From a virus (Duplodnaviria > Heunggongvirae > Uroviricota > Caudoviricetes), in IMG/VR virus record IMGVR_UViG_3300044796_000656: a stretch of DNA of 64,000 nucleotides; one strand, given 5' to 3'. The notes beneath the pieces were generated by a model. That model had not been told where the DNA came from. It worked only from the letters and a program-made list of their open reading frames with translations, and searched no databases. This document shows, piece by piece, positions 20,556-47,913 of the stretch. How positions within the stretch are numbered: the first letter of the stretch is position 1; every line of letters starts with the position of its first letter. Made by a program: the position numbers and the translations under genes.

Positions 20556-21004
20556 TCGGTGCCAATCTACGGCGGTGGCCCGGCGACTTCCTGGACGTGC
20601 AAGCACTGTGCGGGCGTGATGCGTCTCCAATCGGCGACGCCTGTATGTGGAACACATCGGCTTGCCGGGACTGGAAACGATACACGGATAAGGACTTCAA
20701 CGTAGGTCACCTATACTAACCTTAGATGATCTGCAAGTTACATCGACGGCAATCCCCTAACCGGGATGACGGTCCTAGTCAGGGACGCCGTTCTTGAGGT
20801 TCGCGGCTGACTAACGTGGTCAGCGTAGTAGCTGCGGGTACAGGGGAGCCTCAGGGAGGCGTAGAACCCGAGGCCCCAGTGCGAACCAAGAGTTATGCAG
20901 GTGAGCGGTGCAATACCTGTCACGGTGACGTGGCGGGCGGCTTTACCCGGAGGACTCGAACCTGAGTCGGCTGCCGGACCCGACCGCGAATCTGCTCCTG
21001 ATTT

Positions 21005-21076
21005 CATAACGCTCGTGAAAAGACCAGCATTAGTTGGCATTTTCGGACAGGGGTTCGACCCCCCTCATCTCCACCA
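21005..21076 (+). ncRNA. ssrA: tmRNA acceptor piece (T-arm, 3' acceptor strand, discriminator A and CCA) of a circularly permuted ssrA
   Basis: GGAC-AGGGG-TTCGACC-CCCCT-CATCTCC-A-CCA, closely parallel to the E. coli tmRNA 3' end GGACGCGGGUUCAACUCCCGCCAGCUCCACCA. The 5' boundary is uncertain. Confidence 0.55.
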
Positions 21077-21100
21077 TGATTCTCCCGTTGTTCACTATAC

Positions 21101-21385
21101 GGGGATGTCACGGCTTCGACGGAAATGGACAATAGATGTGGACGAGCCGGATGGCGTGGCCACCGTGGCGCAAGCTGACCCCAGTCGGTAACGACGGGGT
21201 ACAACGGACACGCAGACGATCAAGTGCCAAAAACACTGTCGCCGTCAAGGTCAATGTCACGGTTTTCCCGGCTCGCCGGGCGGCCCTGGCAATGGAACTT
21301 GCCGCCTAGTCTTCGGACTAGGAGGGGCTAAGGACTGAAGCCTTTTAATCCAAGGGGGACCGATGGCGGTCCCCCACAGTTCACT
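21101..21385 (+). ncRNA. ssrA: tmRNA coding piece (5' acceptor strand GGGGATG, tag reading frame ending ...ALAMELAA-TAG at 21307..21309, stop codon inside a hairpin)
   Basis: GGGGATG-TCACGG-CTTCGACGG resembles the tmRNA 5' end GGGGCUGAUUCUGGAUUCGACGGG. GGGGATG pairs perfectly with CATCTCC 24 nt upstream and includes a G3-U70 wobble. The tag frame ends LAA. The 3' end is a strong 9-bp hairpin at 21353..21379. Confidence 0.55.
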
Positions 21386-21401
21386 CTGAGGATATGTATC
21401 C

Positions 21402-22141: not shown

Positions 22142-22339
22142 ATGCGCGTTGAACTGAAAGTCAGTGTAGACGTTGACGCTGGAGAATGCACCGAAGACCC
22201 TTCCCTGATTGCGGATTCTACTCGCGATGCGGTGTATAACGCCTTGGAGTTAGTACGGGATGAAATGGGATTTACCCATTCACTGAGTGGCGAGATTGCA
22301 CTGAACGATATTGAGGTATCGGTTGAGTCGTACAAATGA
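22142..22339 (+). CDS. small acidic hypothetical protein
   Basis: AGGAGA RBS. 65 aa. Confidence 0.4.
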   Translation: MRVELKVSVDVDAGECTEDPSLIADSTRDAVYNALELVRDEMGFTHSLSGEIALNDIEVSVESYK

Positions 22340-23400
22340 GGATCTCGATCGAACAGATGTCGTTGTTCATGCCGCCTCCGCCGCCGGCCGTTATACCTGA
22401 ACTTGAGCCCATCATTTTACCGCCTGAGGCGCCGGAGGAACCAGTAGCGATTGTTCCCGTGACTGTCCAGGCGGAACCTCACGATTGCGAATGGGTGGCG
22501 TTTATTAGGCAGCATGGCTGCACCCCGGCTCTTGGAGATGCCAAGCAACCCTGGGAGTACAAGGGTTGGCTCATGTATTACCGACTGGCATGTGAAGACC
22601 GCTCCGATGTCGTGCCTCGTTGGAATTACTGGGCGGAGACCATGCAGGCTGGCCGGCTGCTCGATAAGCCGATTCCAAAGCTCGTATTCCATGAAACCAC
22701 CGAACGGGACCCTGAGTACAAGTTGGTCGATAAATGGATCGAGCTTGTTCACCAGAAGAATGGCACCTGGGATTCAGTGCGGGATCTCATGGACTGGTTT
22801 CTATGGGGCTTCGCCGCCGCCGATGCGCCGCCTAAGTTCTCGGCTGAGTTAAACGAGGCGCTGTATAGGCAGGTCAATATCGGGCCGCTGCTTCTAAAGC
22901 CAGCCGATTACTTCGGGTCATGGGTTTTGTTCCACAAAGGATCGTGGAATCCGCATGCCTTCTTTCCAACCCCGATGCACGTTGTCACGTTCATGAATCA
23001 GATGACGTTCGGAACTCAGGAAGGCGATTGCAGACTGAAGACCGTGGCCGATCCTTGTGTCGGGACCGGGCGCTTCTTGATGGACGCGAGTAATCACTCT
23101 TTGTGTCTTTCAGGGATTGACATCGATCCGACGAATCTGGCGGTAGCGAAGGTCAATGCGTACTTGTACGCGCCCTGGCTCGCCCGACCGCTCCCTGAGA
23201 GCATTACTGGATATAAACCTGGACGCTTTGGATTGCACTGCGGCAATTCGCTGTCGCAGGAGATGACGGACTATGGTCTGCTCTCGGAAGCCGAAACGAT
23301 GGCTCTGTGGGATGCCCGGAGACCGCCCAAAGATCCGGACGTGCAACCGACGATAAAGCGGAAGCGCCGTAAGAGTTCAACAATGGAACTGGTTCAATAA
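22336..23400 (+). CDS. SAM-dependent methyltransferase-like protein with N-terminal QMSLF peptide and Pro-rich linker
   Basis: DPCVGTGRFL (motif I-like) and GIDIDPTNLAVAKVN. I see no canonical NPPY/DPPY motif. The N-terminus reads EQMSLFMPPPPPAV. Confidence 0.5.
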   Translation: MRISIEQMSLFMPPPPPAVIPELEPIILPPEAPEEPVAIVPVTVQAEPHDCEWVAFIRQHGCTPALGDAKQPWEYKGWLMYYRLACEDRSDVVPRWNYWAETMQAGRLLDKPIPKLVFHETTERDPEYKLVDKWIELVHQKNGTWDSVRDLMDWFLWGFAAADAPPKFSAELNEALYRQVNIGPLLLKPADYFGSWVLFHKGSWNPHAFFPTPMHVVTFMNQMTFGTQEGDCRLKTVADPCVGTGRFLMDASNHSLCLSGIDIDPTNLAVAKVNAYLYAPWLARPLPESITGYKPGRFGLHCGNSLSQEMTDYGLLSEAETMALWDARRPPKDPDVQPTIKRKRRKSSTMELVQ

Positions 23401-26005: not shown

Positions 26006-26082
26006 TCTATGGCAGGCCAACAGCTTACTTGTACCGTTGGTATCTCGAAGAAGCCGGAGAACTCCGGTACAAAAGGAATGTC

Positions 26083-26637
26083 ATGAATACACCTTCAACT
26101 GCATGGGCACGTAAGTTCTTTGATCTCGCGCAACATATCTCAGGTTGGTCGAAAGACCGGAGCACAAAGGTCGGCGCGGTCATCTTCAATCCCGACACGC
26201 ACGCGATTCTATCGGTCGGTTACAACGGGTTTCCTCGCGGAGTACGAGATGACGCATCAGATGTTACGCCGATCCTAGTACAGCCATCGATGGACACTTG
26301 GAAGGGTATTTTCACAGATCAAGTTGCAATTGATTCCGAGATTGCTCGTATCGGGTCCAGGCACGAACGGCCGCTGAAGTATAAATGGACGGTCCATGCG
26401 GAAGAAAACGCGATCCTTAACTGCGCGCGGCATGGTATCCGTACCGAGGGCATGGCGATCGCCCTTCAGTGGTATCCCTGCATGCATCCCTGTGCTTGTG
26501 CCATTGTTCAGTCTGGCATCGAGACGGTGATCTGCACTAGGCCCGACTTTAACCATCCTCGATTCGGGGAAGAGTTCAAGTTGACCCATGAATTGTTCTC
26601 TGAAGTGAAACTTAACGTCGTCTACCTGGAGACCTAA
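26083..26637 (+). CDS. dCMP (deoxycytidylate) deaminase
   Basis: Zinc-binding motifs HAEENA and PCxxC (YPCMHPCACAI). Confidence 0.8.
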   Translation: MNTPSTAWARKFFDLAQHISGWSKDRSTKVGAVIFNPDTHAILSVGYNGFPRGVRDDASDVTPILVQPSMDTWKGIFTDQVAIDSEIARIGSRHERPLKYKWTVHAEENAILNCARHGIRTEGMAIALQWYPCMHPCACAIVQSGIETVICTRPDFNHPRFGEEFKLTHELFSEVKLNVVYLET

Positions 26638-27329
26638 TGACGATTACCTGCACGGTTCCTCTGCATGCGATTGACGAACGACTTGAACGTGAAGGTATTC
26701 GTCTCCGCCGGGATCGCTTCTTCATCCCGACTATGGCCATGAAAGACATTCTTGGACTGGGGATTGAACCCCGCGAACTGGCCGAAAAGTACATGACGTT
26801 TTATGAGACGATTCCTTTTTATAAGGTCTGCCCTGGGGGCGCCCAACACCATCATTGGTGGATAGGCGGCCTGGAGGATCACGTCAAGGAAATGATCGGC
26901 TGGATGTATGACCAGAAGAGACTCTACAAGAGCGACCTGGCTGGAGTCAGTTCCACGGATATTGTCGCCGCCGCGTTCCTACACGACCTCGACAAGATTT
27001 GGATATACCAGTTGTTAACACCCGAAGAGAAAGAGAAATCCAAGGGCAAGTACCACGAAAAGCAGGAGTTCCGTGGCGTCCAGACAGCCTTCCAGAAGGT
27101 CGATCCCCATTCCAAGATGTTGCTGGAGTTGGCCCGCTTCGGGATCGTCCCCACAGACGATCAATGGTCGGCGATCCTGTTTCACCACGGCGGTTTCTCG
27201 CCGGCGCACTTCCAATTCGGCGGGACCAGTTACACCGGCGAGTTCGTGAACAAGCGCAACCCGCTGGCGTGTCTGTTGTCGATGGCCGACCTGTACAGCT
27301 CGCAAATCCTGGGAAGGAGTCTTTCCTAA
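26637..27329 (+). CDS. HD-domain phosphohydrolase
   Basis: HHHWW...H...FLHDLDK matches the H..HD..D metal-binding pattern. Confidence 0.6.
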   Translation: MTITCTVPLHAIDERLEREGIRLRRDRFFIPTMAMKDILGLGIEPRELAEKYMTFYETIPFYKVCPGGAQHHHWWIGGLEDHVKEMIGWMYDQKRLYKSDLAGVSSTDIVAAAFLHDLDKIWIYQLLTPEEKEKSKGKYHEKQEFRGVQTAFQKVDPHSKMLLELARFGIVPTDDQWSAILFHHGGFSPAHFQFGGTSYTGEFVNKRNPLACLLSMADLYSSQILGRSLS

Positions 27330-27532
27330 TGTGCATGGCTTGCGTTGAAGCGGGAGCCTGGGTCGTTGCGGCTGGTGCCACTGTCTTGCCGTTGGTCATT
27401 CCGGCGATCCGAAAGAAATGCGAGAAGTTCATAAGCTGCGGTGGTGAAGTCAGGTCCAACACTACAGTCTGCAAAACTGTCATCGCGGGTTCAAATCCCG
27501 CCCGCAGCTCCACCGATCCCGCACTCGAATGA
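27329..27532 (+). CDS. small membrane protein
   Basis: One TM helix. 67 aa. Confidence 0.35.
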   Translation: MCMACVEAGAWVVAAGATVLPLVIPAIRKKCEKFISCGGEVRSNTTVCKTVIAGSNPARSSTDPALE

Positions 27533-27801
27533 GCTGTCACCACAGCCTCCTTCCCGATGACAACAGTTCGTGCTTTCGGTGTCTGGAAGAGAACCTGGAA
27601 AAGATTCTTCACCAGCATCACCAATGCCCGTGGTGTGGCCGGATCTGGAAGTGCGCTGTGCCTTGGTGCAGCAAGGGTCTGGATATTATCCCGAATCAGT
27701 ACGATGCGTGCTGGATCAGGCACATCACCAGTCGCGAAGGGGTGCAGTGCTGCAAGAAGACGTACGACGTGGAAGATCACCCGTACTACGGAAAGCTCTA
27801 G
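27529..27801 (+). CDS. Cys-rich small protein
   Basis: Multiple CxxC pairs. Confidence 0.45.
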   Translation: MSCHHSLLPDDNSSCFRCLEENLEKILHQHHQCPWCGRIWKCAVPWCSKGLDIIPNQYDACWIRHITSREGVQCCKKTYDVEDHPYYGKL

Positions 27802-27812
27802 GAGTTCAAAGC

Positions 27813-28082
27813 ATGGTAGCAACTGAACCGACAACGTCTGAACCGACAACAAGTGTCGAGGTATTGAGTCTCAACTTGTCTGTCACCCGCGTCCGGACCT
27901 GGGACGGCGAGCAACTCATGGACGAGAAGTTTACCGTTCTCGAAGATTCATCGGAAACGATGGTGATCGAGGAAGGAAACTGGGTGGATACCGAACAGGC
28001 AGTAATCAAGTATCTCTGTCAAAGCGTCACAGAAGATACTCGGCCACCCTACCTGATAAGTAGGCGCAGTAAATCGAGTTAG
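27813..28082 (+). CDS. hypothetical protein
   Basis: 89 aa. EPTTS repeat at the N-terminus. Confidence 0.4.
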   Translation: MVATEPTTSEPTTSVEVLSLNLSVTRVRTWDGEQLMDEKFTVLEDSSETMVIEEGNWVDTEQAVIKYLCQSVTEDTRPPYLISRRSKSS

Positions 28083-28093
28083 AAGGACGGACA

Positions 28094-30247
28094 ATGCCGA
28101 AGATCATACTTGCCGCAGACCAGTTTTGCGGAGCTGGTGGGACATCGTTGGGATTTACCCGGGCATGCTACAAGCGCGGGTTAAGCCCGGACCTGCTCGC
28201 CATCAATCACTGGCCGCTGGCAATCGAGACTCATTCGGAGAACCTGGCGTATGCACGTCACATGTGCATGTCGCTCGATCAGGTGAATCCGCGTGAGGCT
28301 GTTCCAGGCGGCCGTTTACATCTGTTGATGTCCTCGCCCGAATGTACGCATCACAGCGTCGCGCGTGGCGGAAAGCCTATTAACGACCAGTCGCGCGCTA
28401 CCGCGTGGCACGTCATTAAGTGGGCGCAGGAACTCTGGATCGCCAACATTCTTGTGGAGAACGTCCCTGAGTTCCAGTCGTGGGGTCCGCTGAAGTCCGA
28501 TCTTACTCCGGACAAACGATACAAGGGGCAGTTGTTCATGTCCTGGATCGAGAACCTCAAGGCTCTCAACTACAACGTTGAGTGGCGTGAACTATGCGCC
28601 GCCGATTATGGAGATGCGACGACGCGTGTCCGGTTGTTTGTGCAGGCCCGAAAGAAGCACCTCGGGCCGGTCACCTGGCCGGAACCAACTCATGCTCGGC
28701 CCATAGAAGTAGGCGCTGATCTGTTCTCGGCCGCAAAGAAACCGTGGCGATCCGCACGGGAGATCATCGACTGGGACATCACCGGAAGAAGTATCTTCAA
28801 CCGCAAGAAGCCCCTGTCACCCAACACGATCAAACGGATTGCAGCCGGACTGAAGAAGTTCGGCGGCGCCGCGGCCGAACCGTTCCTGGTCATGCTTTAT
28901 GGAACTGGAATGGTCCGCGACGTCGATCGGCCGCTTCCGACTGTGACAGCCGACGGCCAGCATATTGCCCTCTGTGAACCGTTTGTCGTCAATCTGAAGA
29001 AGGGAAGCATGCCTCGTAGCGTGGACAAACCCTGCGCGACCCAGACTACGAAGCAGCACCAGTACCTCTGTGAGCCGTTTGTTCTGGGCCAGCAGTCGTG
29101 CAGTGCTCCCCGCTCGACGGATCTTCCGATCCCGACAGTGGCGACCGCGGGTGCCATCCGGGTATGCGAGCCGTTTCTTATTCCGCAGTTTAGTGAACAC
29201 GCTCCTCGATCCATCGATCGCCCTATCGGGACGGTCACAACCACCAGCCGGGGAGTTGGCTTAGTGGACTTCGTGATCGGTATAGACCACCAGGGCGGAG
29301 ATGGCTCTCCGCGCTCTGTGGAAGAACCGATCACCACGATGACCACCAAGGCCCGTCATTGTGTTGTTGAAGCCGCGGCGGAGCCCGTAAGCCAGTTCCT
29401 CGTCCATTCCGGAGGGCCATCGGTTGCCGAGCGTTCGGTAGACCAACCCTTGAACACCATTCTTACACGCGAGCACATGGCCGTTGTCGAAGCCGTGGCG
29501 CTCAAGGTCGATGCTCCGGCTTTCCTGGTCAATGTCGGAGGCCCGGAAGGCTCCGGCCGGCAGCCGAAGTCGGTGGACGTGCCCTTGAATACCGTCCTGA
29601 CAGAGAACCATACGGCGGTCGTCGAACCATTCATTATGGCGGTTAATCATGGAAACGATGGACCAACGGCAGATGCCCGGCGCTGCAAGTCAATGAACGA
29701 TCCGTTGCCGACGTTGACCACGGAACAATCGTTTGCGATCGTCGATCCCTTCTTGATGGCTGTCAACCACAGCGAAACCGGGAATGGGGGTGCCCGCTGC
29801 TACACCGTCGATGATCCTCTGGGAACGCTTACGACCAAGGGGTCGTTTGCGGTGATCGATGCCGATGCTCAGAAGGTCGATCAGACTTTCCTGGTCAAGT
29901 ATTACGGGTCTGGGATTGCGACCTCGGTCGATGAACCCCTGGACACCGTGACTACGAAAGACCGCTTTGGCCTGGTGACCATCAACGGCGAGCAGTATGC
30001 GCTCGACATCCGCTTGCGCATGTTGGAACCAAAGGAGTTGGCGGCGGCGCACTCGATGGAGGGTCACATCTTCAAAGGGCCACGTTCGATGCAGGTAAAG
30101 CAGATCGGCAACGGCGTTCCATCAGGTCTCAGCGAAGCCCTGACAGGTAACGTCCTCGATCAGTACGCCGATGTCATCGACGAAACCGATGTCCCGATAG
30201 ATCTTTTGATAGCCGGGGCCGGTACGACTATACCTGCAACTGTGTAA
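28094..30247 (+). CDS. DNA (cytosine-5) methyltransferase with a tandem-repeat target-recognition region
   Basis: Motif I FCGAGG, motif IV SSPEC, motif VI ENV. Motif IX LRMLEPKELAAAHSM and motif X QIGNGVP. Between motif VI and motif IX there are about 10 tandem repeats of 35-40 aa. Confidence 0.85.
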   Translation: MPKIILAADQFCGAGGTSLGFTRACYKRGLSPDLLAINHWPLAIETHSENLAYARHMCMSLDQVNPREAVPGGRLHLLMSSPECTHHSVARGGKPINDQSRATAWHVIKWAQELWIANILVENVPEFQSWGPLKSDLTPDKRYKGQLFMSWIENLKALNYNVEWRELCAADYGDATTRVRLFVQARKKHLGPVTWPEPTHARPIEVGADLFSAAKKPWRSAREIIDWDITGRSIFNRKKPLSPNTIKRIAAGLKKFGGAAAEPFLVMLYGTGMVRDVDRPLPTVTADGQHIALCEPFVVNLKKGSMPRSVDKPCATQTTKQHQYLCEPFVLGQQSCSAPRSTDLPIPTVATAGAIRVCEPFLIPQFSEHAPRSIDRPIGTVTTTSRGVGLVDFVIGIDHQGGDGSPRSVEEPITTMTTKARHCVVEAAAEPVSQFLVHSGGPSVAERSVDQPLNTILTREHMAVVEAVALKVDAPAFLVNVGGPEGSGRQPKSVDVPLNTVLTENHTAVVEPFIMAVNHGNDGPTADARRCKSMNDPLPTLTTEQSFAIVDPFLMAVNHSETGNGGARCYTVDDPLGTLTTKGSFAVIDADAQKVDQTFLVKYYGSGIATSVDEPLDTVTTKDRFGLVTINGEQYALDIRLRMLEPKELAAAHSMEGHIFKGPRSMQVKQIGNGVPSGLSEALTGNVLDQYADVIDETDVPIDLLIAGAGTTIPATV
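28913..29990 (+). repeat. about 10 tandem degenerate coding repeats (R-S-x-D-x-P-x-x-T-x-T-T ... V-E-P-F) inside the methyltransferase
   Basis: Repeated peptide units visible in the translation: RSVDKP..TQTT, RSTDLPIPTVAT, RSIDRPIGTVTT, RSVEEPITTMTT, RSVDQPLNTILT, KSVDVPLNTVLT, MNDPLPTLTT, VDDPLGTLTT, VDEPLDTVTT. Confidence 0.75.
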
Positions 30248-30254
30248 GGAGTAA

Positions 30255-30710
30255 TTGATGCAGCAGCTCGAAGCAACCATGCGGCATGTCGAAGACTGCG
30301 TTCGGGCGGCGCTGGCAACTTTGCCTGCCGGCGTTGTCTTGGACAATGTACCTTGGCGACCTGATGCACACGTTCTTTTCAGGTTAAAGTCGTTCAAGTT
30401 TGGCATAGCTGCACCTCGCGAGTCAGCGTACACCTCCAAGGCAGTCTTTGGTAAGGTCTCGTTCTCGGCTACGCTCGACCACGAGGATTCAGAAACACAG
30501 GGAAAGGCTATTTGCTGGATTCTTCAATCGCTTCGGGAGCGCCTGAAGATCGGAAGTTACCGCCGCGTGAAGATTACCAAGAACATGGAACTTTTCAAGG
30601 CAAAGTCGATGACTTATACAAAGCTGACGATAACAGTATCGTTTAGTGATTTGATCGACACGTCTTTCCAGTACGACTTGCTCTGGGCCGCCGCAGTGTC
30701 CCAGCAGTAA
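30255..30710 (+). CDS. hypothetical protein
   Basis: 151 aa. Confidence 0.5.
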   Translation: MMQQLEATMRHVEDCVRAALATLPAGVVLDNVPWRPDAHVLFRLKSFKFGIAAPRESAYTSKAVFGKVSFSATLDHEDSETQGKAICWILQSLRERLKIGSYRRVKITKNMELFKAKSMTYTKLTITVSFSDLIDTSFQYDLLWAAAVSQQ

Positions 30711-30835: not shown

Positions 30836-31270
30836 ATGGCTCTCAATCGTTATGAAGTAATCGGAAACGTCGGGAAAGATCCCGAGATCATCAAGACCAA
30901 CGGCGGCAAGACCATCGCAAAGTTTTCGGTCGCCACTAACGAGTACGCCGGTAAAGACGGCGGCGGCAAAGCCAAATACGAGACTGAGTGGCACAACGTT
31001 AAGGTATTTGGGTCGAGCGCAGAATACGTCGAGAAGCAACTCAAGGCCGGCGATGTCGTCTTTGTGTCGGGCCGCCACAAGACGGAGACCTACGACAAGA
31101 AGGAAGGTGGCGGCAAGGGCTACTCGATCTTCTGCCAGGTCGGCCTCAATGGCCGAGTCGAACGCGTATCCCGCAAGGAAGGCACCTCGAACGGCAACGG
31201 CAACGGAAATGGTAACAGCTCCAGCGCCACGGAAAAGGCTCCCGAGGTCGAGGAAGAAATTCCCTTCTAG
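30836..31270 (+). CDS. ssb: single-stranded DNA-binding protein
   Basis: OB-fold SSB core (RYEVIGNVGKDPE...EWHNVKVFG). Gly/Asn-rich linker. Acidic tail ending EEEIPF. Confidence 0.85.
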   Translation: MALNRYEVIGNVGKDPEIIKTNGGKTIAKFSVATNEYAGKDGGGKAKYETEWHNVKVFGSSAEYVEKQLKAGDVVFVSGRHKTETYDKKEGGGKGYSIFCQVGLNGRVERVSRKEGTSNGNGNGNGNSSSATEKAPEVEEEIPF

Positions 31271-31900: not shown

Positions 31901-32058
31901 ATGGAAAGCCCGCAGGTAACTCCCCAACAGATCCATAATTTGTGGCGTACGGGTAAAACCTTTAATGAGATCTGCGAGTTTACAGGTCTGAGTCTTCAAG
32001 CGGTAATGCAGGCATTTAATGCCCCGAGGAAACATGACAAAGAAACGAAGCCAAACTG
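31900..32058 (+). CDS. small protein (52 aa) with helix-turn-helix-like segment
   Basis: Translation reads TFNEICEFTGLSLQAVMQA. Confidence 0.3.
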
Positions 32059-32576
32059 AACCGCACCAGGTTTTCGGCGGAAGTCAAGGTGTGCCTAACA
32101 ATCGCCGTCGTATGGACCCTCCCGAGGAGAAACGGATCTACATCGTTGTTCCCCAGACGGTCCAGGTTCTTGGGAAGTCTGGTTTCCCGAGAAGTGCCCG
32201 CAAAGTGATGCGCAACTTCCGTATGGAACACGGCCGCCTGATGGCGCAGTGCGCGCATGTCGCGCGCCGGCTGGAGAACGAACAGCTCAACGAGAAGTTC
32301 TGGGACGAGAGAGACCCCAGTACTCGCAAGACATCTGCGTATAAAGAGATCACGACCATCGTTCTCAGCGTCCGTAACAGTCGGGAACTGGAGAAGGTCG
32401 CTGTCGAGGTCGCTCTGACCGGCGGCCGGAATCTGTATTTCCCGTTCGCCGACACCAATCCGGAGTTCTACGGGACCAGGGAGAAGGTCTTTACGGCCTT
32501 TGCCATCGGTCCGATCGAGCGCAGCAAGATCGATCCCGTACTCGGGCATCTTCCGCTCTATGGAGATCAGGCATGA
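32034..32576 (+). CDS. PTH2-family peptidyl-tRNA hydrolase
   Basis: GKSG...GRLMAQCAHVA aligns with the PTH2 GKGKIAAQCSHA motif. ...AFAIGP...GHLPLY aligns with VLAIGP..GHLKL. Confidence 0.6.
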   Translation: MTKKRSQTEPHQVFGGSQGVPNNRRRMDPPEEKRIYIVVPQTVQVLGKSGFPRSARKVMRNFRMEHGRLMAQCAHVARRLENEQLNEKFWDERDPSTRKTSAYKEITTIVLSVRNSRELEKVAVEVALTGGRNLYFPFADTNPEFYGTREKVFTAFAIGPIERSKIDPVLGHLPLYGDQA

Positions 32577-32917: not shown

Positions 32918-33276
32918 GTATCAACCAGCATTTGAATGCCACGATCGCCCTGATCCATGGCGACATGAAGTTGGTGCGGGAGATCCTGCGCTCGCCGGGG
33001 TCCGACGTCAAGAACGTACCGCAAGTCGTGAGTGCGTTGGCGCAGGCGTTGGATGAAGTACGCGCGGATGCGGTCACAGTTGCCAAACATGAGGCTGACA
33101 TTGCGTTGGTCATCAAGGAATTGACTGCCGTCCAGGTGGATTCCCTGGGCATAGAACCTGGTGAAAGTCTGACACCTGATCTGAAGAATTCGTTTATGAA
33201 CGGTGTGGAAGCCGTCGAGAAACTCATCAGTGACCGCATCAAGCGGCACAGGTACGAACTGCGTCATGACAATTGA
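32914..33276 (+). CDS. hypothetical protein
   Basis: 120 aa. Confidence 0.5.
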   Translation: MSINQHLNATIALIHGDMKLVREILRSPGSDVKNVPQVVSALAQALDEVRADAVTVAKHEADIALVIKELTAVQVDSLGIEPGESLTPDLKNSFMNGVEAVEKLISDRIKRHRYELRHDN

Positions 33277-33757
33277 ACTCTACGGTTCCAGTATCCTGCG
33301 CGAGGTGTGTGATCCGATCGAAGACTTCGGTTCCGACATGCTTATGAGCCTGGTGCGCGGGATGAAGGACGCGATGAACAGCAAAGAAGGTGCTGGTCTC
33401 GCCGCTCCCCAGGTCGGCTTCAATGAACGCATGTTCGTGTTGAACGAGCAGTTGGCCGGCGGAAAGTGCGATACCGTGATCTGCAATCCCGTGTTGCTGC
33501 GGGATATGGGCAAGGATGTCCAGCAGGAAGGCTGTCTCAGTGTTCCGGGTTTCTTTGAAAACGTCGAACGAAGCCGCAACATCGAGTTCGAGTATTTTAC
33601 GGCCGAGGGTATTCAAAAGCAGGTGTTCGTTTCCGGATTCCTTGCCCGATGCATTCAACATGAAATGGATCATCTGGACGGGAAACTGTTTGTCGATTAC
33701 CTGAACAAAGACCGCCAGAAGAAGATCGAGAAGGCGATGCGAAAACTACGGGGGTAA
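33266..33757 (+). CDS. def: peptide deformylase
   Basis: Motifs GAGLAAPQVG, EGCLSVPG and HEMDHLDG. Confidence 0.8.
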   Translation: MTIELYGSSILREVCDPIEDFGSDMLMSLVRGMKDAMNSKEGAGLAAPQVGFNERMFVLNEQLAGGKCDTVICNPVLLRDMGKDVQQEGCLSVPGFFENVERSRNIEFEYFTAEGIQKQVFVSGFLARCIQHEMDHLDGKLFVDYLNKDRQKKIEKAMRKLRG

Positions 33758-44822: not shown

Positions 44823-44922
44823 GTACAACGTCCCAGAGTGACGCTTCGGGATTCCCACAGATTGTGTATTGTGGGTTTTCGACGCCTCACTGTCTGTGAG
44901 GACTGCAAAGGAAGGACTGTCG

Positions 44923-47913
44923 ATGAGTACGGCAACTGAAGTTATGACTACGGGGTTGGAGTTTGGCCGCCATTTTAGCGATGGCAAAAATCCGTTCAAC
45001 ACTGTCGAGTGGGAAACGCGCGATGCCCAGATCACCGATGCCAAGGGCGCAATGGTCTTCGAACAGAAGGGTATTGATGTCCCTAAAGACTGGTCCATGA
45101 CCGCGACGAATATTACTGCCAGCAAGTATTTTCACGGCAAAATTGGTACGCCGGAACGTGAGTCGAGTGTCTCTTCGCTAATCGCGCGTGTTGTCTCAAC
45201 GATCACGAGTTGGGGAAAGAAGGATGGTTACTTCAAGACCGAACGCGATGCTCAAATCTTTACCGACGAGCTGGCGACACTGCTAGTAAAGCAGTACGGG
45301 ACATTTAACTCGCCGGTCTGGTTCAACGTCGGCTGCGACGCTCTGGAGCCCGAGTCGAAGACGGCTAACTGGCACTGGGACTATGCCGAGACCAAAGTCC
45401 GTTTCGACCGTGTCGGGTACAGCCGGCCGCAGTGCTCGGCATGCTTCATCAACAGCGTCAAGGACGACATGGTTTCGATCCTGGAGCTGGCCAAGACTGA
45501 AGGCATGCTCTTTAAGTGGGGTTCGGGCACGGGGACAAATCTATCGCCCCTGCGTGCCGATGGGGAACTCCTGGCCGGCGGTGGGACCGCCAGCGGGCCT
45601 ATCTCGTTCATGAAGGGATTCGACGCCTTTGCCGGAGTCATCAAGAGCGGCGGCAAGACTCGCCGCGCTGCCAAGATGGTGATCCTGAACGCCGATCATC
45701 CGGATATCGAGGCTTTCATCGAGTGCAAGGGTAAAGAAGAAGCCAAGGCGCATGCCCTGATCTCGGTGGGATACGACGGCAGCGGCCCGGAGTCGGAAGC
45801 CTATAACTCCATCTTCTTCCAGAACGCCAATAACTCAGTCCGCGTGACCGATGACTTCATGAAGTCGGCGGTTGAAGGTGGCGGCGTCGATGACACCTGG
45901 CCACTCACTGCGCGCACTAACGCAGAACCGTTACGCTTTGTGAGTGCCGAAAAACTTCTGGACAAGATGGCGAAGGAAGCCTGGAGTTGTGGAGATCCGG
46001 GTATCCAGTTCGACAGCAAGATCAACGAATGGCATACCTGCAAAAGAAGCGGCAGGATCAATGCCAGCAATCCATGCAGCGAGTTCATGTTCCTCGATGA
46101 CACGGCCTGCAATCTGGCGTCGCTGAACTTGCTGAAGTTCCTTAAAGAAGACGGCACGTTCGACGTCACCGGCTTCGTTCAGGCGGTTCATCTCTTCATC
46201 GTCGCCCAAGACATCCTGATCGATAACTCGGGGTACCCGACGGAAGCGATTGCCAAGAACTCGCATGATTTCCGGCCGCTTGGTCTGGGATATGCGAACC
46301 TCGGCGCCATGCTGATGGCGATGGGGGTTCCCTACGACAGCGACCAGGGCCGCGGCATTGCCGCTGCCATTACCGCGATCATGACCGGCACGGCGTATGC
46401 CCGCTCGGCTCACATGGCTGCGTCGCTTCCTCGTATCGAAGCCGCTGGTGAATTTGACTCTCCGTTGGTCGCGACCTTCCCTGGATATTGGGAAAATCGC
46501 GAATCGATGGCGGAAGTCATCGCCAAGCACACTCTGATGGCCCGCACCCTCTATGCCGAGATCCCCGAGTATCTACGCGAAGCTGCGTGTGACTCTTGGG
46601 GCGCTGCCGGCGACTGGGGTCGTAAAGTCGGGTTCCGCAACTCGCAGGTAACTGTCCTGGCGCCGACCGGAACGATCGGTTTCATGATGGACTGCGATAC
46701 CACAGGCGTCGAGCCTCTGCTCGGACTTGTGGTGTTCAAGAAGTTGGTTGGTGGCGGCTTTATGAAGTTACCGAACGGGGTTGTTCCGAGAGCCCTCCGC
46801 AGCCTGGGATACACGCAGTTCGAAGCCGATGGCATCTTGAAGCACGTCCAGGATTTCGGAACAGTCGAGGCAAGCACGCTCGACAAGGACCATCTGGATG
46901 TCTTCGATTGTGCCCTTCGGCCGCAACAGGGTAAGCGTTCAATTGCCTGGACCGGTCACATCCGAATGATGGAAGTGGTTCAGCCGTTTCTTTCCGGTGC
47001 GATCTCGAAGACGGTCAATATGCCCGAGGAGACCACGGTGGAGGATGTTAAGACGGCCTACATCGAGTCCTGGCGCCGCGGGCTGAAGTCGGTTGCCATC
47101 TATCGCGACGGTTCCAAGAAGAACCAGGTACTCGTTACCAAGCGTGATGAGAGCAAGGATATGGGGTCGATTATGAAGACAGCAACTGCTTTGGAAGATC
47201 CGTTAGGAGAAGTGGCCCGAATTGGTTTGGAAGCAAGCGATCAGAAGCAATCATTCTATCGGCCTCCGAAGACGGTCGAGACGATTGACATGGCCGCGCC
47301 GCCCAAGGCCGTGCGCCACAAACTTCCTGACGAACGGATGGCCCTTACCCACAAGTTCAACATTGCGGGGCATGAGGGATACCTGACGATCGGGTTGTAT
47401 GCCAATGGCCAGCCGGGTGAGATCTTCATCACGATGTCGAAGGAAGGTTCGACCATGTCGGGGCTGATGGACAGCTTCGCGATGGTGGTATCCGTGGCCC
47501 TGCAACACGGGGTTGCTCTGACAACGTTGATTGACAAACTTGCGCATACGCGCTTCGAGCCTAGCGGTTGGTCTCAGAACCAGCAGATCGGCTACGCCAA
47601 GTCGATCATGGATTACATCTTCCGCTATCTCGAACAACGGTTTGTGAAGGGCGAACAGTTGTCGTTCTTCGCGCAAACGCCACCGGCGAATGCAGTCGTA
47701 AAGGAAGTTCCCCAGGTGGAACCTAAAGCTGAATATCCGGTGGAGTCTTTAAGTGTCCTTTTAGGTATGGAGTCCGGTCACGCTGCCGACAAGATGGCGG
47801 AGTTGATGGACTTTGGAGATGCCCCGAGTTGTTCGGTTTGCGGAGCCATCATGGCCCGCAACGGCTCTTGCTACAAATGCATGTCCTGCGGTTCAACCAG
47901 CGGGTGTTCGTAG
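44923..47913 (+). CDS. nrdJ: class II (adenosylcobalamin-dependent) ribonucleotide reductase
   Basis: Active-site motif NPCSEF. About 1000 aa monomeric layout. C-terminal CSVCG...CYKCMSCG zinc finger. Confidence 0.9.
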   Translation: MSTATEVMTTGLEFGRHFSDGKNPFNTVEWETRDAQITDAKGAMVFEQKGIDVPKDWSMTATNITASKYFHGKIGTPERESSVSSLIARVVSTITSWGKKDGYFKTERDAQIFTDELATLLVKQYGTFNSPVWFNVGCDALEPESKTANWHWDYAETKVRFDRVGYSRPQCSACFINSVKDDMVSILELAKTEGMLFKWGSGTGTNLSPLRADGELLAGGGTASGPISFMKGFDAFAGVIKSGGKTRRAAKMVILNADHPDIEAFIECKGKEEAKAHALISVGYDGSGPESEAYNSIFFQNANNSVRVTDDFMKSAVEGGGVDDTWPLTARTNAEPLRFVSAEKLLDKMAKEAWSCGDPGIQFDSKINEWHTCKRSGRINASNPCSEFMFLDDTACNLASLNLLKFLKEDGTFDVTGFVQAVHLFIVAQDILIDNSGYPTEAIAKNSHDFRPLGLGYANLGAMLMAMGVPYDSDQGRGIAAAITAIMTGTAYARSAHMAASLPRIEAAGEFDSPLVATFPGYWENRESMAEVIAKHTLMARTLYAEIPEYLREAACDSWGAAGDWGRKVGFRNSQVTVLAPTGTIGFMMDCDTTGVEPLLGLVVFKKLVGGGFMKLPNGVVPRALRSLGYTQFEADGILKHVQDFGTVEASTLDKDHLDVFDCALRPQQGKRSIAWTGHIRMMEVVQPFLSGAISKTVNMPEETTVEDVKTAYIESWRRGLKSVAIYRDGSKKNQVLVTKRDESKDMGSIMKTATALEDPLGEVARIGLEASDQKQSFYRPPKTVETIDMAAPPKAVRHKLPDERMALTHKFNIAGHEGYLTIGLYANGQPGEIFITMSKEGSTMSGLMDSFAMVVSVALQHGVALTTLIDKLAHTRFEPSGWSQNQQIGYAKSIMDYIFRYLEQRFVKGEQLSFFAQTPPANAVVKEVPQVEPKAEYPVESLSVLLGMESGHAADKMAELMDFGDAPSCSVCGAIMARNGSCYKCMSCGSTSGCS

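Follow-up and report, generated by a model that had tools for sequence, protein, structure and literature searches.

A phage cytosine methyltransferase gene and its internal array

We investigated a methyltransferase gene carried in a 64,000-nucleotide (nt) stretch of tailed-phage DNA (IMG/VR virus record IMGVR_UViG_3300044796_000656, Caudoviricetes), referred to below as the window. The predicted product matches PF00145 over residues 9-239 (E-value (E) 3.7e-18, 66.5 bits against a cut-off of 22), and NCBIfam yields only a partial match, to TIGR00675. Catalytic motifs I, IV, VI, VIII, IX and X all occur and follow one another in the canonical order, and motifs VIII and IX are separated by a variable region (Table 1). 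Motif IV contains an extra residue, a glutamate, between the proline and the catalytic cysteine, and P82, E83 and C84 are invariant in 44 homologs. An AlphaFold2 (AF2) model reached a predicted local distance difference test score (pLDDT) of ~85-97 for most of residues 1-230 and ~85-95 for residues 640-690. Comparison of this model with the PDB using Foldseek retrieved DNMT2, DNMT1, M.HaeIII, M.HhaI and the prophage enzyme 3g7u at E ~1e-10, which confirms the catalytic fold only; a sequence search of the PDB with the methyltransferase returned nothing at E <= 0.01. Together, the motifs, the Pfam match and the fold indicate that the open reading frame (ORF) encodes an intact C5-cytosine methyltransferase.

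Table 1. Features of the window (coordinates are window positions in nt; amino acid (aa) numbers refer to the methyltransferase; L009, P0002 and P0003 are introduced in the text)
Feature	Coordinates	Strand	Basis or remark
Orphan C5-cytosine DNA methyltransferase, complete gene, 717 aa	28094..30247	+	ORF listing; PF00145; TIGR00675 partial; Foldseek
N-terminal catalytic half, aa 1-257	28094..28864	+	Pfam, motif positions, AF2
Motif I, FCGAGG, aa 11-16	28124-28141	+	S-adenosylmethionine (AdoMet)-binding
Motif IV, SPECTHHS, aa 81-88	28334-28357	+	catalytic Cys84
Motif VI, ENVPEF, aa 122-127	28457-28474	+	ENV = aa 122-124
Motif VIII, TTRVRLF, aa 176-182	28619-28639	+	
Helical linker, aa 243-257		+	after motif VIII part, end of N-terminal half
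Unit 1, aa 258-292, type A: GAAAEPFLVMLYGTGMVRDVDRPLPTVTADGQHIA	28865..28969	+	type A first in 104/121 homologs
Unit 2, aa 293-325, type K: LCEPFVVNLKKGSMPRSVDKPCATQTTKQHQYL	28970..29068	+	pN/pS 0.04
Unit 3, aa 326-357, type D: CEPFVLGQQSCSAPRSTDLPIPTVATAGAIRV	29069..29164	+	10 synonymous, 0 nonsynonymous vs L009
Unit 4, aa 358-389, type F: CEPFLIPQFSEHAPRSIDRPIGTVTTTSRGVG	29165..29260	+	11 synonymous, 0 nonsynonymous vs L009
Unit 5, aa 390-424, type G: LVDFVIGIDHQGGDGSPRSVEEPITTMTTKARHCV	29261..29365	+	9 synonymous, 0 nonsynonymous vs L009
Unit 6, aa 425-464, type C: VEAAAEPVSQFLVHSGGPSVAERSVDQPLNTILTREHMAV	29366..29485	+	absent from P0002, P0003
Unit 7, aa 465-509, type C: VEAVALKVDAPAFLVNVGGPEGSGRQPKSVDVPLNTVLTENHTAV	29486..29620	+	paralogue of unit 6
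Unit 8, aa 510-549, type R: VEPFIMAVNHGNDGPTADARRCKSMNDPLPTLTTEQSFAI	29621..29740	+	locally hyper-diverged vs L009
Unit 9, aa 550-587, type R: VDPFLMAVNHSETGNGGARCYTVDDPLGTLTTKGSFAV	29741..29854	+	paralogue of unit 8
Unit 10, aa 588-627, type B: IDADAQKVDQTFLVKYYGSGIATSVDEPLDTVTTKDRFGL	29855..29974	+	type B last in 108/121 homologs
C-terminal catalytic part, aa 628-717	29975..30247	+	beta-hairpin, then motifs IX, X
Motif IX, RLRMLEPKEL, aa 640-649	30011-30040	+	
Motif X, QIGNGVP, aa 670-676	30101-30121	+	
dCMP deaminase	26029-26637	+	PHROG 174, E 6.7e-31
HD-domain protein, upstream of methyltransferase	within 26029-27329	+	weak match, E 8.9e-4
tRNA-Cys (GCA)	27435-27509	+	~0.6 kb upstream of methyltransferase
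Single-stranded DNA-binding protein (SSB)	30836-31270		
Class II ribonucleotide reductase	44869-47913	+	

The region between motifs VIII and IX consists of 10 tandem units (aa 258-627, nt 28865-29974). Their anchors fall at residues 277, 310, 342, 374, 409, 449, 494, 534, 572 and 612, giving anchor-to-anchor periods of 33, 32, 32, 35, 40, 45, 40, 38 and 40 aa and unit lengths of 32-45 aa. The units share a scaffold in which an [E/D]-P-F-h-h strand is followed by a first variable loop, the element R-S-V-D-x-P-x-x-T-[VIL]-T-T, a second variable loop and a closing h-V, and all 10 carry a [P]-x-x-T-[VILQM]-[TAL]-T core. When each unit was scored against a hidden Markov model (HMM) of the other nine, it obtained 17-32 bits, against 4.6-12.1 bits for the best of 500 composition-matched shuffles; chance is therefore excluded. 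No Pfam or NCBIfam model covers the array. An earlier note, made from the sequence of the window, had described this gene as a C5-methyltransferase with about 10 tandem degenerate repeats, and the leave-one-out scores bear this out, with exactly 10 units. The span it gave, 28913-29990, was essentially right but began ~16 codons late, and the repeats that it placed at a period of 35-40 aa are real but range more widely in length.

The identity of the repeated element is informative. The TL motif of C5-methyltransferase target-recognition domains (TRDs), with the consensus (YFW)X(RK)X5P(STCA)PT(ILV)(TASV), lies 10-50 residues before motif IX and contacts DNA in the HhaI and HaeIII complexes, its flanks determining specificity; in C5-methyltransferase structures, it meets the DNA at the flipped target base (PMC2413257). 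By sequence comparison, the conserved core of each unit corresponds to this motif, so that, as the earlier note had recognized, an element normally present once before motif IX occurs here in ten copies (PMC2413257). The monospecific PF00145 enzymes Dcm, M.HhaI and M.HaeIII share the catalytic fold and motifs I-X with the present enzyme, and unit 10 together with the following hairpin is the counterpart of the lone TL-motif segment that those proteins have ahead of motif IX. Unit 10, of type B, is also the copy that every relative holds at this canonical place, and it is the only unit that AF2 modeled with confidence. Thus, whereas monospecific enzymes have one TRD, nine extra TL-motif modules (~330 aa) are present here upstream of the canonical one.

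At the DNA level, the array is invisible. Tandem Repeats Finder detected no tandem array in the gene, the best direct repeats are 32-57 nt long with 60-73% identity, and the identity between units is at most about 70%. This indicates that the unit duplications are ancient and rules out collapse or expansion of the repeats during assembly. An independent metagenome contig from a related phage, L009 (ENA ERZ27245386), is 87% identical to the window at the nt level over 4.7 kb; its methyltransferase gene is of equal length, has the same 10 units and shows no indels. Consequently, an assembly artefact, which the earlier note had considered possible, and a recent repeat expansion are both rejected, given the low DNA identity, the lack of a DNA tandem repeat and the identical unit count in L009.

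The two methyltransferase genes differ at 8.2% of nt positions, and 24 of the 155 changed codons alter the protein. The ratio of nonsynonymous to synonymous divergence (pN/pS) is 0-0.16 per unit, compared with 0.03 for the catalytic core, which indicates that every unit is under purifying selection. Family-wide, units of the same type are 54-69% identical, compared with 58% for the catalytic cores. Unit 8 stands out in the comparison with L009, being 2-3 times more diverged than the remainder of the gene (pS 0.80, pN 0.13, against a pS of about 0.04-0.44 elsewhere), and may be a patch replaced by recombination with a diverged copy. The gene contains no long identical repeats or simple-sequence tracts, so hypervariability and phase variation were rejected. 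The description of the enzyme in the earlier note as 'hypervariable' cannot be upheld, considering that the DNA identity between units is too low for in situ recombination or phase variation and that purifying selection is strong.

Family spread and mosaic evolution of the modules

A protein search returned 6676 homologs at E <= 1e-5. The top 120 range from 412 to 959 aa and contain 4-12 units by the first unit HMM and 3-12 by the refined core HMM that was used for unit typing; members of the Firmicutes prophage branch have 2-9 units. The methyltransferase of P0072, the 959-aa homolog, harbors internal domains of the intein type (PF14528 LAGLIDADG, PF13403 Hint). When a 32-position unit profile was searched against 1.84 billion representative proteins, the number of matching proteins was 1790, 801 and 149 at E cut-offs of 1e-3, 1e-10 and 1e-30, respectively. 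The 801 representative clusters contain 2-12 units, and none of the best 150 proteins exceeds 12 matched stretches. The array of 10 units is near the top of this observed range. Among the representatives that reach 900-1066 aa and carry 7-12 units, some are possibly fusion proteins.

Homologs were also found in 348-658 cultured-phage records, with hosts that include Gordonia, Mycobacterium, Klebsiella, Pseudomonas, Vibrio, Arthrobacter, Streptococcus and Bacillus. Pseudomonas phage PMBT3 has at least 7 units, Bradyrhizobium phage ppBdUSDA122-1 has 6, an E. coli lambdoid phage contig has at least 6, and the Bacillus prophage enzyme P0121 has 3. The array architecture is thus a widespread and apparently undescribed trait of a phage methyltransferase family; a full-text literature search found no paper describing the repeat array of this lineage and no characterized member. 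The architecture, which had been called highly unusual, is exceptional in the number of units, 10 being close to the maximum of 12, but is otherwise common, as the 801 clusters and the cultured-phage records demonstrate.

To describe how the arrays are composed, we typed 964 units from 121 proteins by average-linkage clustering, obtaining about 74 types. Each unit of the enzyme studied here resembles one particular unit elsewhere (normalized score 0.6-0.85) much more than it resembles its sister units (0.32-0.51). The type consensuses share the common scaffold and have type-specific conserved residues in both loops, for example, ..LGQQSG.. / ..GAI in type D, ..PFFGEREGQ.. / ..HGAG in type E, ..PQFSE.. 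/ TTTSRG in type F and ..PHQHGNDT.. / ATSSD in type L. The type string of the present enzyme is A-K-D-F-G-C-C-R-R-B, and examples of others are ADEGCCHLB, AIPDEFXSSB, ADJGB and AXFNIESB. Altogether, the 121 proteins display 110 architectures with near-constant ends: type A is first in 104 and type B last in 108. For 26 of the 48 frequently co-occurring type pairs both orders were found, and the same type occurring twice within one protein accounts for only 41 of the 964 units. Some regularities of position were also seen: types H and L always occur together in a fixed order (21:0), as if they formed one two-unit block, and type D is nearly always second, right behind A.

The closest relatives differ from the present enzyme by clean whole-module gaps, P0002 lacking units 4 and 6 and P0003 lacking unit 8 as well. 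The middle of the array is therefore best described as a mosaic, with insertion and deletion of whole modules and permuted order, a pattern that fits evolution by module recombination. Comparison of repeat number among relatives, which the earlier note had proposed, hence yielded both a range of 2-12 units and these whole-module differences; its suggestion that repeat recombination shaped the protein holds for module gain, loss and permutation on evolutionary time-scales, but not for in situ recombination between repeats.

Multispecific methylation as the candidate function

The principle of multispecific C5-methyltransferases has been known since the 1980s, and the Bacillus phage enzymes that embody it were studied in the 1980s and 1990s. 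As a comparison class, we considered M.SPRI, M.Phi3TI, M.Rho11sI, M.H2I, M.SPbetaI, M.(phi)BssHII and M.BceSV, and inspected the sequences of the SPR, rho11s, H2 and SPbeta enzymes, whose variable regions contain the TL-type cores SPTITT, SHTLSA, ATTLTS, SPTLTT and AFTVNT; the P-x-T-[ILV]-[TS] core of the present units returns in each of their TRD-bearing segments. These Bacillus phage enzymes have several tandem TRDs and methylate several sequences (PMC12707154, PMC8936443), the tandem TL-motif modules being used alternatively rather than cooperatively (PMC8936443), and prophage M.BceSV (BCE_0393) methylates 6-7 motifs (PMC3459991). Like them, the present enzyme is phage-borne and orphan, with one catalytic core and tandem TL-motif segments between motifs VIII and IX, and in both groups segment kinds recur between enzymes in differing combinations. 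The role proposed for the Bacillus phage enzymes is likewise protection from many restriction systems.

The differences are also clear. The present enzyme has the motif IV variant S-P-E-C-T-H-H-S and the C-terminal R-M-L-E-P-x-E-L, unlike SPR-type enzymes, which are absent among the homologs of the methyltransferase; the unit-core HMM scored at most 0.9 bits on SPR-type TRDs. These sequence comparisons place the enzyme outside the SPR-like lineage. The array is much larger, with 10 units (2-12 in the family); by our reading of the sequences, the 439-aa SPR enzyme has 3 TL-motif segments and the 503-aa rho11s and H2 enzymes have 4, and between 3 and 7 specificities are reported for the Bacillus phage enzymes. 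The modules are smaller and more regular, at 32-45 aa on an EPF...RSVDxPxPTVTT scaffold; unlike the arrays of the Bacillus phage enzymes, this one begins and ends with near-constant units; and the family extends across many phyla and metagenomes, whereas the SPR type is confined to Bacillus. The multispecific layout was known already, and what is new is a distinct, widespread lineage with larger arrays of smaller, more regular modules. Type I HsdS subunits offer an analogy only: there, too, recognition modules are exchanged and rearranged on a conserved scaffold, but the fold and chemistry are unrelated, HsdS is a separate subunit of an adenine methylase, and its two TRDs are used simultaneously for a bipartite site, unlike the many modules that reside here within the methyltransferase polypeptide.

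We consider it probable, at roughly 60%, that the gene encodes an orphan phage-borne multispecific C5-methyltransferase with an anti-restriction role. This reading is suggested because the core of every unit matches the TRD TL motif and because tandem TRDs have a precedent. Under such a mechanism, one catalytic domain (motifs I-VIII and IX-X) would be served by ten alternative mini target-recognition modules, each with a scaffold of an EPF beta-strand, the TL motif and a closing hydrophobic strand; the bases on either side of the target cytosine would be read by two loops whose sequence depends on the module type. C5-methyltransferases have a single catalytic pocket, and because the TL motif adjoins the flipped cytosine, the modules would be engaged one at a time, each steering methylation of its own short motif. 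After replication, phage DNA would gain 5-methylcytosine (5mC) at many different sites and would thereby be shielded from many host restriction enzymes. Over evolutionary time, whole modules would be inserted, lost, duplicated or permuted between the A and B units, which scarcely vary, and the repertoire would change accordingly. Whereas the anatomy, module types, selection, mosaic evolution and phage context were observed, we infer that every module is active and recognizes its own sequence, that the modules alternate in use and that the enzyme counters restriction. The multispecific, anti-restriction function put forward in the earlier note accordingly stands as the best-supported interpretation, with the Bacillus phage precedent behind it (PMC12707154, PMC8936443, PMC3459991), but both of its parts are a matter of what we infer rather than of observation.

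A broader joint reading, to which we would give slightly less than even odds, is that these proteins form a large undescribed cross-phylum phage family with a cassette system of 32-45-aa modules, in ~70 or more types that would each have one DNA specificity and in numbers of 2-12 per enzyme between constant ends, such that the present enzyme would methylate ~8-10 motifs, more than any characterized methyltransferase. The same reading holds that this cassette system either evolved independently or was kept from a common ancestor.

Several points weigh against the multispecific interpretation. The A and B units may be framework, which would leave 8 or fewer specificities, and the paralogue pairs 6/7 and 8/9 may overlap in specificity. 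No methylation or biochemical data were found for any member of the lineage, and the two potential links to studied enzymes most likely fail: the primer-encoded N-terminus of BAMTA208_6715, MNKLRVMS, matches H2, and that of M.BceSV/BCE_0393, MSKL, resembles SPR/SPbeta, albeit over four residues only, so that neither is likely to belong to this lineage. (The 3-unit homolog AEB62149.1, P0241, is a different protein from BAMTA208_6715.) Minimal TRDs of SPR-type enzymes were reportedly put at ~38-50 aa by Trautner et al. in 1996, and units 2-4, at 32-33 aa, are shorter. Finally, the non-terminal units have a pLDDT of 30-50 both in the AF2 model of the present enzyme (44-homolog alignment) and in that of a 3-unit Bacillus homolog (100-sequence alignment), and AF2 gives no support for an internal unit folding like the terminal unit or docking in its place. 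Structure prediction, one of the checks named in the earlier note, thus recovered the catalytic fold and unit 10 but not the remainder of the array.

The same models enter into the alternatives. In both, B alone is modeled confidently against the catalytic domain, and B is near-constant family-wide, as expected of a functional canonical element; these features would suit an enzyme in which only unit B recognizes DNA and units 1-9 are a conserved accessory domain for non-specific DNA binding, processivity, oligomerization or partner binding. A structural spacer, however, is not expected to keep a TL motif in every unit, nor to comprise ~74 discrete types with conserved loops in arrays of 2-12 units with permuted order. 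With B as the sole determinant, almost all family members would have the same specificity, although their different internal sets are kept under strong selection. We therefore regard a single specificity as unlikely. A cooperative array in the manner of zinc fingers or TALEs, reading one long composite site, producing a clustered methylation pattern, or methylating almost irrespective of context through summed weak contacts, appears somewhat less likely still. The modular, permutable architecture with type-specific loops would accommodate it, and the AF2 models, neither of which predicted a solenoid or propeller, give no compact fold, which is compatible with beads-on-a-string wrapping of DNA; but in known structures the TL motif meets DNA at the flipped base and there is one catalytic pocket (PMC2413257), the precedent for tandem TL motifs is alternative use (PMC8936443), and a long, rare site would confer little protection from restriction.

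The idea that the units have no function, whether as pseudo-TRDs in decay or as an artefact of assembly or annotation, is effectively refuted. Apart from the degenerate look that the repeats have initially, nothing favors it, and it is contradicted by the low pN/pS in every unit, by the recurrence of the same 10 units in the independent contig, by an inter-unit DNA identity that assemblers cannot collapse or expand, and by intact arrays in hundreds of homolog clusters.

So far, multispecific cytosine methyltransferases have been regarded as an oddity found in a few Bacillus phages. If the multispecific interpretation is correct, the strategy of one core and many modules would be common, scaling to 10-12 modules and occurring in hundreds of cultured phages of Actinobacteria, Proteobacteria, Firmicutes and Cyanobacteria as well as in many metagenomic phages. 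It would bear on how phages evade restriction-modification while provoking methylation-dependent (Type IV) defenses, and dense multi-motif 5mC signals in the methylation data of metagenomes would need to be interpreted accordingly. No natural reader of DNA sequence smaller than these 32-45-aa modules, with their two variable loops and fixed scaffold, would be known for a base-flipping enzyme, an attraction for engineering. Under the broader cassette reading, the catalogue of modules would also serve as a natural look-up table from mini-TRD sequence to DNA motif for predicting or engineering specificity. Cultured relatives, such as those in Pseudomonas phage PMBT3 and Bradyrhizobium phage ppBdUSDA122-1, make the idea directly testable.

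Genomic context and further features of the window

The genes of the window are almost all on one strand. In addition to the neighbors in Table 1, those around the methyltransferase encode a Dda/RecD-like helicase, a sliding clamp and a DNA polymerase, and the annotations identify the context as a phage replication and nucleotide-metabolism module. The dCMP deaminase/HD nucleotide-pool module could affect the cytosine supply. Pfam and PHROGs detected no nuclease or TET-like domain in the neighboring ORFs, although the flanking ORFs at 27570-28082 and 30255-30710 have no match in either, so that a novel nuclease is possible there. Given that no such domain was found beside the gene, we classify the methyltransferase as an orphan phage enzyme. 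An association with TET/5mYOX hypermodification or with a restriction enzyme was likewise rejected, Pfam and PHROGs showing no such neighbor.

The best phage match of the ribonucleotide reductase is in LR745208.1, a 485-kb uncultured phage (44% identity, 96% coverage), which suggests that the window comes from a very large phage. The window also contains a permuted tmRNA gene at 21011-21309 on the plus strand (Rfam RF04321, 75.6 bits against a gathering score of 47), called by ARAGORN at 20984-21400 with the tag peptide AKNTVAVKVNVTVFPARRAALAMELAA. Together with a homolog of the peptidyl-tRNA hydrolase PTH2 (32019-32576, plus strand, E 2.1e-08) and a peptide deformylase (33203-33757, plus strand, E 5.8e-44), it makes up a small gene set for translation rescue and translation maturation. 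For a 354-aa ORF at 22336-23400 on the plus strand, the only match, to N6_Mtase (PF02384), stays below threshold, with 15.7 bits where the cut-off is 20.4 (E 0.0097); the ORF may encode a second, adenine-type methyltransferase.

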